Made by a program: the position numbers and the translations under genes. 64,000 nucleotides of DNA from Eledone cirrhosa (taxonomy: Eukaryota). Positions within the stretch are counted from its first letter, which is position 1, and every line of letters begins with the position of its first letter. The stretch lies in contig OZ024742.1 of assembly GCA_964016885.1 (NCBI GenBank), positions 351,540,001 to 351,604,000 on the forward strand, given 5' to 3'. Shown here in pieces: positions 2,266 through 59,907 of the stretch. The notes under the pieces were generated by a model. That model was given only the letters and a program-made list of their open reading frames with translations. It had not been told where the DNA came from and ran no database searches.

Positions 2266-2308
2266 ACGATGAACTAGTTTCAATTTTATTAGCTATCGTC
2301 AGCATCGT
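2266..2308 (-). ncRNA. Type I hammerhead ribozyme, minimal (stem II decayed)
   Basis: ACGATG-CTGACGA-tagctaataaaatt-GAAAC-ta-GTT-CATCGT: 6-bp stem I and palindromic ACTAGT stem III. Confidence 0.7.
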
Positions 2309-2733
2309 ATACCTTCCTGTCAGATGATTGAACGTTTGAAAGTATATACTTTCCTTATGCATATTAACAGCTGAGCAGCCTAATTTGCATATCGAGTGAG
2401 TTAGTCGGCAGGGTGTACTGAAAACTATGCGGCTTAATTCGGCTCTTTGTTTACAAACAAACCGAACAATATAATAAATGTTCGGTAAACCCATACGTAC
2501 ATATATATATATATGTGTGCATGTATGTATATATATACATATTACTCTACGTCTCTATACATATATGTATGTACGTATACATACTTATATTTAAGTATCA
2601 GCCGTACTAAGAGTGAGAAATGAAATCGCCCGGGCGACTAACTCACTCGATATGCAAATTAGGCTGTTCAGCCGTTAATATGCATAAGGAAAGTATATAC
2701 TTTCAAACGTTCAATCGTCTGACAGGAATATAT

Positions 2734-2779
2734 GGAACGTTGACGATAGCTAAGAAGCTTGATACTAGTTCATCGTTCC
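2734..2779 (+). ncRNA. Decayed hammerhead, inverted copy of 2266-2308
   Basis: ggaacg-ttgacga-t AGCT aaga AGCT t-gatac-ta-gtt-catcgttcc: stem II intact, core mutated. Confidence 0.55.
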
Positions 2780-5700
2780 TTTGTCAGTGTTGAACAAAAG
2801 GGCGACGATGGTTGCCGAACACTGTACTGCTTAATCCGGGCTGTTTGTTTACAAAGAAACCGAACATGATAATAAATGTTCGGTAAACACATACATACAT
2901 ATATATATATATATATATATATATATATATATGTGTGTGTATGTATGTGTATATAAATATACTACTGTACGCCTGTATACATATATGTATGTACGTATAC
3001 ATAGTTATATATATATATATATATATATATATAAATATATATATATATATATATATATATATATATATATATATATATATATATATATATATATATATAT
3101 ATATATATTATATATGCTACTCATTTACCGGTACAGTCGAATGGCAGTGTTGACTCAGAACCCGATAAAAGTGTATACTTGGAACGAAAAACCTGTTCCA
3201 TCTTAGGATGCACTACTACCCTAGATGTACATAACGCAACTTGCAGTGTACCTCCGAGTTTCCAGAAACCAATCGAATATATCATTTGATATCTATTGTT
3301 GAGTTGCAGGTTCGTTTTTAACAAGTCTGTATATTTCGTTGTTGTAGTATTAATGTGCAACATGCCTCTGGTCTCATTAATCATAGTGTCACTATCATCT
3401 ACCTTCGTGGCTGTTCACTCTGAGCGGAAATTTGTTAATTAACCTATCATCGATTGCTTTGCGAAAGTCTTCGAAGATCGGGTGCTAATCTGCTACTTGA
3501 AGTTGCTACCTCGAATATACTCATTACTATATGATAGAAAGAGTCGAACCCTGACGCATGAGCTCTCCCAGTTTCAATAGCTAATGACAGATTTGATAAT
3601 ATAGACATACTCTAATACCCAAAGTATCGAGTAATCTGTGGAGTAATAGACTAATTAGTGTTAAACTGGTTCTATCCTATTATATATATTTATATATATA
3701 TATATATATATATATATATGTGTGTGTGTGTATGTGTATGCGTGTGTGTTTGCATGCGTGTGTGTGTATTTGTGTTAGTGCGTGTGTGCGTGTTCGAAAT
3801 TAATTTTATTTTTATTTTTTACCTGAAACAAGATATACCGTGATTGTCCATCGACTAAAAACCAGCGATAATTCATTGAATACAGATTATAAATCCTGAT
3901 GTCTGGGTTTTTGATAATTTGTAAATCATTCAAAAAATTAAATATTTAAACACACCAACTTCCATGCTTAATGGAAATTGGAATATTCCAAAAATACTTT
4001 GTTCACGAATTTTAAAATCCAAATCAATCTTTTAGATTCAATTCATCTTAATCCTTTTGTCTGCGATCAGACATAACATCAACGACATGTAATTTAAGAG
4101 ACGATGATTAATAGGGGGTAGGAAGCCGTAGTAAAAACGATTTAGCTATGAGGTTACAACCTTTCGTTTCGACACACAATGTAAATTCTATAAGTCTCTC
4201 TAAATATTCTACATCAGTTTTGTGAGCAGTCACAACCGACTGCCGTTCTTTAATAGAAGGCTACTCAAAGTATACAGAAGTATTCCTTCTCTCCAATTGA
4301 GAGACAATGTAATTTCTTAATTGCGTCTCAGTCGCTTTTCCATTAAGAATATGGGTGTAGGTAATTCTAAGAAGAAATCGATACCGTTGTTTCCTTTCAT
4401 CATTAAATCTTTGATTTCTTCTGCAATTTATGTTATAATCAAAAGATTTCAATGCTCAGTCATTGAACAAAATACGCATTCACTGATAAACATTCTAACA
4501 TACACAATCACAGAAACATATATTTTTATCTATCTATCTCTCACTACGAGTATATATATATATGTATATGTATGTATGTGTGTGTACACACACACAAACA
4601 CATACCCACATGTATATATGTATATGTATGTGTATGTGTGTGATAAGCATTATATTATTATATGATAAATAAAATGTAATTAAAACATATAGGAATATAT
4701 GATTACTTTTGAACTAATTCGGTTTTCAATCGATAATGTAAATTATGGACACCGACATTTTCATTACATCAGTTTTTGTACAATCATAATAACTGATCTA
4801 AGTTTAGTCATGTTTTGAATTATGTTCTCTGTATATTTTCAAAACATATCTATATTTCTGACACTATATGTTTTACACTAACCTAACACATGCTCTTACA
4901 TAAGAAATACACCTCCACTAATATTGTTGTAGTTGGTTCAATGTTGTTATTTATTGCGATTGTTTTACCACTTAACGTAAACTAAATGAACTAAAGTGAT
5001 GACAATGATTCACGTTAACTTGATTTAGAGTGAGACGTATGTAACACAACTTAGGATTACATTAACATAATTCTGTTCACTATTAACTAATGACTTAGTG
5101 GTAAAAGTCGTTGGAGACATGTACGATACATCAACACTTCCCACCTTATATAAAGGTTATCAAGAGCTATAAATGCATCCATATTTAAAGAACAAAACAG
5201 CACAAAATAAAATATTATTGTGAAAATTAAAATATTTCGACGATAGCAATAGAGACACTTACGCATACACACACACACACACAAATACACACACACATAT
5301 ACACGCACACGCTCACACGCACACACACATACACACACACGCACAAATATATATATATATGCATATATATATATATATATATATATATATATATATATAT
5401 ATATATATATATATATATATATATATATATATATATATATTAGAGTGTGCCATAAAAAGCAAAGTCACAACACTAACACTCCCTGTGTATTTTCCCTATT
5501 ATAAATGCCCCAATTGGTAACAAAAAACATATTTTGTATCAAATAATTTATTTTGAGCGTTGCCTATGTCATGGTGATTATAGTGGTATGTGTGAGATTA
5601 TGTTACATGAAATCATGAAAATGTGAAACCAGATATGACCATACAATAATTGTTTATTTTATTAATCCAATATTTCATATGATTTCCCTTTTTAGAAAAT

Positions 5701-58525: not shown

Positions 58526-59175
58526 CAATTAAAATTAATTTCTAAATAATTAAAATATGCACAGTAATGTATATAATGTGAAACGAAACTGGATAGCCCA
58601 TATATATACGTGTGTGTATGTATGTACATATATATATATATATATAAAAATGTGCGTATATATATATATATATATATATATATATATATATATATATATA
58701 TATATATGTGTGTGTGTGTTGTTGTCTGTGATCTATATACACTGGTCATACACACACAAACACATACACAAACACATATATATATATATACACATTCACA
58801 TATATATATATATATATATATATATATATATATATATATATATATATACACAACAACACCATTTCTCTCTCTTCCATTCTTCTTATCTGTCTCCTATCCC
58901 TCTCTCTGTGTCTCTCTTTCAATATACTATGTCACTACCACGATCTGCTCATCGCTATCTTTATCTCTTTTCCGTTATGAAGGTACCCGAAAACCCTCTA
59001 TATCTGGGGCATCTGTGGTCCGATTTACGCGATGTTCTTTTATTCCATTTGTATTCCCATTTCAGAGGCAGCTTCCATTTAAATTATTTTCCCATAATGC
59101 ACCCTTTTGGCTGTGTTATATTACAGACAAACAACCATGCAAGCGATCATAGTGATTTAGTAGTATATATATATA

Positions 59176-59358
59176 ATTCTTTCTACTTTAGGCACAAGAC
59201 CAGCAAATACCCAGTGCATTACTGGTACTTTATTTTATCGACCCCGTAAGGATGAAATGCAAAGTCAACCTCGGCGGGATTTGAACTCAGATCGTAATGG
59301 GACGTAACTATGCTGGAAAGCATGGCGCCCGACCCTCTACCGATACTGCCAATCTACC
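59176..59358 (-). mobile_element. tRNA-derived SINE (Meta-domain-like family)
   Basis: Homologous to 8040-8222; tatatatataat on both sides is a possible TSD. Confidence 0.88.
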
Positions 59359-59868
59359 GTATATATATAATGCGTGTTTGTGTGTTTTAGTGCATACTAT
59401 CATATAAAATATCTCAGATTAAAGAATTATTGTATAAAGTTTTATCATGTGAAATATTTGTCCAGTTAAGTTATATTAAGTAACAATTCGACAGAAAATA
59501 GCAATTTTACGTTTCCCTTAAAAATTCATTTTATGGATAATTGGAATAGATTTCAAAACCGAATGTATATCTTATTAATTCCGCAGGCAGTTACATACAT
59601 ACATACACACAAGCACACACACACACACACATACCCCCCCCCCCCATATATATATATATATATATATATATATATATATATATATATAGAGAGAGAGAGA
59701 GAGAGAGAGAGAGAGACAGAGAAATATATATGATTGTGTATAGAAGATTATATTAATAAAAGAAATTCCTACTTTGTCTGATTTACTCGTTTTATTTACA
59801 ATCCTTTAAAATATACAATGGTATTAGAATGAAATAGTATGGTGGAATATTAAATGTTAAGTGTTAAT

Positions 59869-59907
59869 TGAACAAGTACTTTCGTGCTTTGGCAATCTTC
59901 AGGTTCA
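59869..59907 (-). ncRNA. 39-nt minimal hammerhead
   Basis: TGAAC-CTGAAGA-tTGC caaa GCAc-GAAAG ta CTT-GTTCA; palindrome AGTACT. Confidence 0.75.

Follow-up and report, generated by a model that had tools for sequence, protein, structure and literature searches.

The ribozyme motifs considered here lie in a 64,000-nucleotide stretch of the genome of Eledone cirrhosa (assembly GCA_964016885.1, contig OZ024742.1, positions 351,540,001 to 351,604,000 of the forward strand). This stretch, called the window below, sits on a 379-Mb contig of a 3.0-Gb genome. It contains type I hammerhead motifs, some of them in families that appear to belong to Penelope-like elements (PLEs). An initial annotation had listed six of these motifs, each with a palindromic helix III, and had proposed that the palindrome acts as a family-specific pairing code. 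The window was scanned for the core, GAAA, UH, a helix I of at least four pairs and a helix II; a palindrome was not demanded. The consensus used agrees with that in PMC4209133. This structure scan found nine motifs, compared with 0.55 per shuffled window (40 shuffles). Six of the nine have a perfect palindrome, compared with 0.05 in the shuffles, and two of these six are copies of one family. Motifs are named by the start of the core, and the features are as follows.

2266–2308, minus strand: type I hammerhead motif 2302; helix I of 6 bp, core CTGACGA, ACTAGT, GTT site
2712–2805, plus strand: inverted copy of the 2302 motif region, 83% identical, forming a back-to-back pair
6003–6033, plus strand: hammerhead-like motif; U3-A8 core, ACCGGT at 6026–6031, helix I of only 1 bp, helices and flanks unlike those of 49547
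32428–32517, minus strand: hammerhead motif of the 33020 family, back-to-back with 33020, the cores 508 nt apart
33015–33104, plus strand: type I hammerhead motif 33020; helix I of 5 bp, U3-A8 core TTGATAA, 59-nt helix II region, ACTACGTAGT, GTC site
34263–34385, minus strand: atypical hammerhead-like motif 34379, at the 3' end of a putative young Hydra-type PLE; core CTGAAGA at 34379–34373, ACATATGT, GTC site
36770–36814, plus strand: hammerhead motif 36774, absent from the initial annotation; U3-A8 core, perfect 12-nt palindrome with a GATC centre
37680–37724, plus strand: hammerhead motif 37685; non-palindromic helix III AGAACT
39854–39906, minus strand: hammerhead motif 39899; helix I of 7 bp, interrupted 16-nt palindrome in helix III
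49543–49579, plus strand: type I hammerhead motif 49547; helix I of 4 bp, U3-A8 core TTGAAAA, ACCGGT, GTA site, no partner in the window
53512–53622, minus strand: inverted copy of the 53730 motif region, 99% identical, the first core base being changed
53722–53792, plus strand: type I hammerhead motif 53730; helix I of 6–8 bp, core CTGATGA, ATGCGCAT, ATA site
54791–54902, minus strand: hammerhead motif 54898; helix III ACATTTGT with a central mismatch; the PLE endonuclease frame lies about 530 nt upstream
55425–55991, minus strand: C-terminal part of the GIY-YIG endonuclease of a Hydra-type PLE, with a CxCX5C linker; Pfam E value 7e-4 for GIY-YIG, below the curated cut-off
57320–57431, plus strand: inverted partner of 54898, the second arm of one PLE insertion; helix III ACATTTTT
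59869–59907, minus strand: type I hammerhead motif 59902; helix I of 5 bp, core CTGAAGA, AGTACT, CTT site, no partner in the window

All six palindromes of the initial annotation are present and lie inside a hammerhead helix III, 6–74 nt from the coordinates given there, which mark the low end of each motif: 2266 for motif 2302, 33015 for 33020, 34266 for 34379, 49543 for 49547, 53723 for 53730 and 59869 for 59902. The palindromes themselves occupy 2273–2278 (ACTAGT, minus strand), 33089–33098 (ACTACGTAGT, plus), 34272–34279 (ACATATGT, minus), 49569–49574 (ACCGGT, plus), 53776–53783 (ATGCGCAT, plus) and 59875–59880 (AGTACT, minus). The 2-nt loops reported for three motifs are indeed those of the three hexamers. 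All six motifs have the core CUGANGA or its U3-A8 variant, GAAA and NUH in type I order. Five of them (2302, 33020, 49547, 53730 and 59902) are complete hammerheads with a core, a helix I of 4–6 Watson-Crick pairs and a helix II of 2–4 bp at the base, and two of these five carry the U3-A8 variant. The sixth, 34379, has the core and the palindrome but almost no helix I. The six had been called independent families, which holds in the sense that their flanks did not cluster, and in that sense only. They had also been said to be palindromic without exception; this is true of the six, but they are a selected set, and the window also holds 37685 (AGAACT), 39899 (ACAGTTCTAGACCTGT) and the pair 54898 (ACATTTGT) and 57324 (ACATTTTT), none of which is a perfect palindrome. 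Looser scans were needed for 57324, for the perfect 12-mer of 36774, for the second ACCGGT at 6003 and for decayed copies.

Of the six motifs, three are paired back-to-back with a copy on the opposite strand and three stand alone; no same-strand partner was found in the window for any of them. Most copies of the 2302 family at random loci have GTA at the site where the window copy has GTT. Whole-motif folding gives weak z-scores of -2.0 to +0.8. An Rfam scan of the window gave no match at the gathering score, and no hammerhead was among the 150 weak matches listed, which are filled by microsatellite look-alikes of miRNA families. This lowers the case little, since the minimal forms described in PMC4209133 were found by descriptors and not through Rfam. 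Candidates at 10050, 13889, 21450, 52091, 52465, 52930 and 62881 were rejected because they failed the helix tests. Decayed hammerhead-like copies, 82% alike, lie on the minus strand at 1460–1545 and 51400–51490, and their family has 14 copies in the random sample described below. Four motif copies (19030 on the minus strand, L092, L150 and L168) have a G3-C8 core and a helix III that stops at A-U; they could represent a minimal hammerhead, or a repeat that fits the pattern by chance.

The composition of helix III points to pairing between molecules. Five of the palindromes, when folded alone, form no hairpin (0.0 kcal/mol), ACATATGT being examined as a duplex only. Predicted self-duplexes of all six range from -4.8 to -12.9 kcal/mol. 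The dimer-type hammerhead of PLEs is marked by a helix III that is short, self-complementary and not stable as a hairpin, as seen here. For a wider view, 157 evenly spaced 10-kb stretches from five contigs (1.57 Mb) were searched with no helix III pairing demanded beyond A15.1-U16.1. This census recovered 145 motifs, compared with 22 in shuffles, and 61 perfect palindromes, compared with 1.7; a rough extrapolation gives about 230,000 motifs genome-wide. When these and the window motifs were clustered with helix III masked, 25 families with at least two copies and 29 single motifs resulted, many of the single motifs being chance matches. Classified by the commonest variant, 12 families are perfect palindromes, four deviate by G-U only, five have odd length and four are mismatched; no family deviates by A-C only. 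One of the mismatched families, the 36774 lineage, is perfect in the majority of its copies, which brings the perfect families to 13 of 25; one of the perfect cases is a trivial 2-nt palindrome.

Complementarity extends to the centre of helix III. Among even-length families, 17 of 19 have a complementary central pair and all 19 a complementary pair beside it, where chance gives 0.40; families with an odd or very short length, six in all, were left out, and the P values of this test are optimistic because the families are related and not fully independent. The central two bases and the adjoining pair are unable to pair inside a one-molecule hairpin. The 36774 lineage gives a view of how such a centre changes. 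In the first 100 of its 1,331 matches, the centre is AGCT in 70, GGCT in 10 and GGCC in three, while the window copy has GATC; AACT (five) and AGTT (four) look like neutral decay. Read from these sequences, the variants form a compensatory path of palindrome change. This lineage is retrozyme-like and, judged by match spacing, is arranged in head-to-tail arrays with a period of about 320 bp (36770–36814; G000:C1:82390499-82394360). Altogether, the self-complementarity of helix III looks to be under selection at the level of these comparisons.

Helix I and genomic arrangement are less uniform. Further families with perfect 10-nt palindromes (L048, L061, L071, L118, L142; L077, L091) have a helix I of 1–3 contiguous pairs, so a weak helix I is not rare in the genome. 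Motifs with ACCGGT, the U3-A8 core and a helix I of 0–1 bp occur at nine loci (L002, L006, L007, L009, L010, L016, L017, L027 and L028, around position 1500) and at 6003 in the window; some 20 nt upstream of the core, the nine loci have a segment nearly complementary to the 3' strand, and no covariation was visible by eye. Where copies of one family lie as pairs within 6 kb, the pairs are back-to-back in 28 cases, direct in five and convergent in one, and 65 of 127 copies are solo. Truncated PLE insertions show such a pattern of pairs and solo copies (PMC8557442). In a back-to-back pair, a transcript contains only one ribozyme, beside its own antisense.

Two families can be assigned to carriers. 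Copies of the 34379 family have RT (reverse transcriptase) and GIY-YIG frames, RWK, DKT, a CxCX5C linker and a (TA)n target, which are Hydra marks according to PMC8557442. The best 40 copies are 99–100% identical, and there are about 1,900 pattern matches, compared with 106 in the control. Same-strand copies are 3115–3121 bp apart and have inverted copies beside them. By these sequence features, the family is a very young Hydra-type PLE with tandem 3.1-kb elements. Its 3' end in the window spans 34263–34941 on the minus strand (L196–L198). The family endonuclease is 64% identical to the window fragment at 55425–55991, which has the paired motifs 54898 and 57324 on either side. In the 34379 family, 13 of 21 copies have the endonuclease some 500 nt upstream on their own strand. 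The 54898 family has it there in 31 of 34 copies, at loci that had been retrieved with the endonuclease itself. The hammerheads of both families are located in the terminal repeat of an element with RT and GIY-YIG.

The 34379 motif itself departs from the usual form. It has a 90-nt helix II region and a helix I of one contiguous pair followed by a bulge, short of the four pairs that the window scan demanded, and that scan missed it. A fully complementary 5' strand is present in none of the first 100 matches listed. Helix II contains 8 nt complementary to the 3' strand, and this complement could provide an alternative fold; among 20 motifs without helix I, no other had such a complement within helix II. 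The nearby 8-bp helix was rejected as helix I of this motif, since no CUGANGA follows it and the predicted fold puts the strand inside helix II. A splice that could supply helix I was also considered; no AG adjoins the core.

The remainder of the window is rich in (TA)n, which dominates a direct-repeat search. Long interspersed nuclear element (LINE) frames lie on the minus strand at 12310–15924 and 15765–17906; one, of 1204 aa, contains endonuclease, RT and zf-RVT, and the other, upstream of it, has 713 aa and no Pfam match. LINE fragments lie at 24075–26827. Two broken non-LTR (long terminal repeat) retroelements on the plus strand (10325–11743 and 19908–22881) retain RT or zf-RVT remnants and adjoin (AAT)n tracts. 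At 43553–44105, a 10-bp unit is repeated about 55 times in an array. A long perfect hairpin at 53611–53711 is the centre of the back-to-back 53730 insertion and gives a spurious MIR529 match below the gathering score.

Short palindromic hammerheads of this kind have been described before. Cervera and De la Pena (2014; PMC4209133) gave the consensus 'GAAAN-palindrome-NUH' for PLE hammerheads, with a recurring palindromic 15.2-16.2 and loop 3, a U3-A8 variant and pairs on opposite strands. In their work, the monomer was inactive and the dimer and trimer were weakly active. The motifs described here resemble those hammerheads in type I topology, short helix I, variable helix II, varying palindromic 15.2-16.2 and loop 3, and U3-A8. 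They are also alike in the many consensus families per genome, the mostly solo copies, the opposite-strand pairs and the tandem copies of about 3 kb around an RT frame. Compared with the forms set out in the available text of that paper, the present motifs differ in helix II regions of up to 59–90 nt, a helix III of 6–19 nt, several G-U, odd-length or mismatched centres, and a young family with a 1-bp and bulged helix I. The same text contains no discussion of partner specificity. The small PLE hammerhead variants of Lunse, Weinberg and Breaker (PMC5785218), known here from citing summaries, likewise have a short palindromic stem III and cleave as dimers (PMC6765202, PMC6466107). The tandem layout is thought to supply the dimer partner (PMC6765202, PMC6466107, citing Lunse et al. 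and Forster 1988). The remark in the initial annotation that minimal hammerheads cleave as dimers through a palindromic stem III is thus published knowledge (PMC4209133; PMC6765202).

Other relatives are the Hydra clade and the retrozymes. The 34379 family resembles the Hydra clade of Craig et al. 2021 (PMC8557442) in RWK, DKT, CxCX5C, a C-terminal GIY-YIG, a length of about 3 kb, (TA)n insertion, tandem and inverted structures and a hammerhead near the 3' end; the 54898 family resembles it in the endonuclease part. This likeness is one of sequence motifs, and unlike the canonical hammerheads of the Hydra elements in the available text of PMC8557442, the 34379 motif lacks a 4-bp helix I. Axolotl retrozymes have type I hammerheads that are weak as monomers and stronger as dimers (PMC7229834; bioRxiv 10.64898/2026.07.22.740005). 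Non-LTR retrozymes of this kind are non-coding repeats with type I hammerheads, and the 36774 lineage, with its arrays of about 320-bp spacing, may be comparable. Unlike animal retrozymes, the six window motifs are solo or back-to-back, not tandem. The non-circular permutations described in PMC10085705 do not fit, as the core parts here are in the ordinary type I order. The dimer-type hammerhead of PLEs is already a published class, to which the window adds examples and for which it corrects an over-reading.

In our interpretation, which we consider very probable, the window carries type I hammerhead motifs at the ends of many repeat families; through the self-complementary helix III, two copies are predicted to pair into a double hammerhead that would cut the transcript. 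By extension from published work, copies A and B of a tandem precursor RNA would pair with each other through helix III. Each 5' helix I strand would pair with the 3' strand of the other copy, forming two active sites, and cuts at both H17 sites would release unit-length RNA. The palindrome would be a structural requirement that any self-complementary sequence can satisfy. It would change slowly via G-U intermediates, and families would therefore often share palindromes. The choice of partner would depend on proximity on one transcript and on helices I and III jointly, an incidental result of divergence. Most genomic copies, the six among them, are truncated ends, either solo or back-to-back, and are likely inert.

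Several observations weigh against this interpretation. Dimer activity was low in the published work (PMC4209133), and Pfam missed both frames of the 34379 family. Outside the Hydra-type families, the linkage to an endonuclease is near control levels: with loci of 1.5–10 kb and Hydra-type protein queries, an upstream endonuclease was found in 0 of 58 copies of the 2302 family, two of 10 for 33020 (not colinear), two of 49 for 49547 (control two) and one of 25 for 59902 (control two). For 53730, the count is three of 16 (control two), with one colinear over 1042 nt, which is only suggestive. Since the loci were short and the queries Hydra-type, these five families may be PLEs of other clades, or non-coding derivatives that resemble retrozymes. 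Family 37685, the most abundant, has 18,781 pattern matches and no predicted self-duplex (+1.4 kcal/mol). In the first 100 matches listed, its helix III is AGAACT in 80, AGGACT in 19 and AGAGCT in one, none of which is a palindrome. The very young 34379 family has almost no helix I. The unfavourable helix III of 37685 and the nearly absent helix I of 34379 indicate that dimer cleavage is not the whole story for amplification.

These two families also speak for the idea that cleavage is dispensable for amplification, the hammerheads riding in PLE ends and many of them decaying even in successful families. Naiads, moreover, amplify without hammerheads, and hammerheads may simply parasitise PLEs (PMC8557442). 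Yet both odd families keep an intact core, and many divergent families keep the core, the helices and the central complementarity, while a bias towards G-U points to selection at the RNA level; we regard dispensability as unlikely. A DNA-level origin, in which the palindromes are products of fold-back template switching or of chance with no role in RNA, could draw on the frequency of inverted duplications (28 of the 34 pairs) and of local fold-backs, and on the resemblance of ATATATAT to the (TA)n background. It is hard to reconcile with a palindrome that always lies between GAA and H17, with the excess of perfect palindromes over shuffles in the census, or with wobble variants that favour G-U on the ribozyme strand, and it seems to us barely credible.

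The family-specific code of the initial annotation, in which palindromes are selected to be distinct and only same-family transcripts activate each other, has some appeal, as the six palindromes all differ, no two are compatible in register, and the 36774 lineage has altered its palindrome by compensatory steps. But six distinct palindromes of lengths 6, 6, 6, 8, 8 and 10 are expected by chance (P=0.81). A code would have one palindrome per family, in all families, shared less than by chance, and the families depart from this: 13 of 25 are not perfect by their commonest variant. Among 11 perfect families, four identical pairs were found against 0.79 expected (P=0.009, under a uniform null and uncorrected for relatedness), and adding six single motifs gives 10 against 1.3 under the same null. 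ACTAGT is common to two families with different helices I and II, ATATATAT is found in three families and a subfamily of a fourth, and ACAATTGT occurs in four unrelated single motifs. ACCGGT appears twice in the window in different motifs (6003 and 49547). With a 12-nt helix II region, it has 324 matches (control seven), in which helices I and II take many different forms. When 35 ACCGGT rows were clustered by their flanks, seven groups emerged; the largest chains unlike motifs, and no family count was drawn. These motifs may be one old lineage, and if so the palindrome would be more conserved than the family. We therefore do not accept the code as proposed and judge it very unlikely.

A weaker statement survives. 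Since each helix I of a double hammerhead forms between two copies, both helices must match across families. Among 276 pairs of 24 families, helix III is compatible in eight, helix I in six and both in one, against 0.17 expected from independence. Five of the six helix I-compatible pairs are incompatible in helix III, for example ATGCGCAT and ATATATAT, both with the TTTTAT/ATAAAA helix, which would favour a code. Two families have TTTTAT and ATATATAT in common. Under this model, helices I and III jointly are predicted to exclude 275 of 276 cross-family dimers, as follows from the geometry of the double hammerhead and ordinary divergence. Cross-family dimers would be rare, yet not rarer than divergence gives, and there is no sign of selected avoidance. 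An actively selected two-key address of helices I and III is likewise very unlikely; under it, in a genome with roughly 200,000 hammerhead motifs from dozens of families, sibling PLE lineages would evade trans-cleavage through G-U changes of one key, and some successful families would have escaped entirely through a broken palindrome or helix I. A palindrome code specific to each family was stated in no paper found in a literature search whose coverage did not include the paper of Lunse, Weinberg and Breaker, which may already cover heterologous pairs.

A selected pairing address, if true, would be a self/non-self system among transposon RNAs, and the census shows no sign of one. PMC8557442 raises the question of what role hammerheads play in endonuclease-bearing PLEs, and the families described here are natural test cases for it. 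They include families with a shared palindrome and a different helix I, families with a shared helix I and different palindromes, the 37685 family and the 34379 family.

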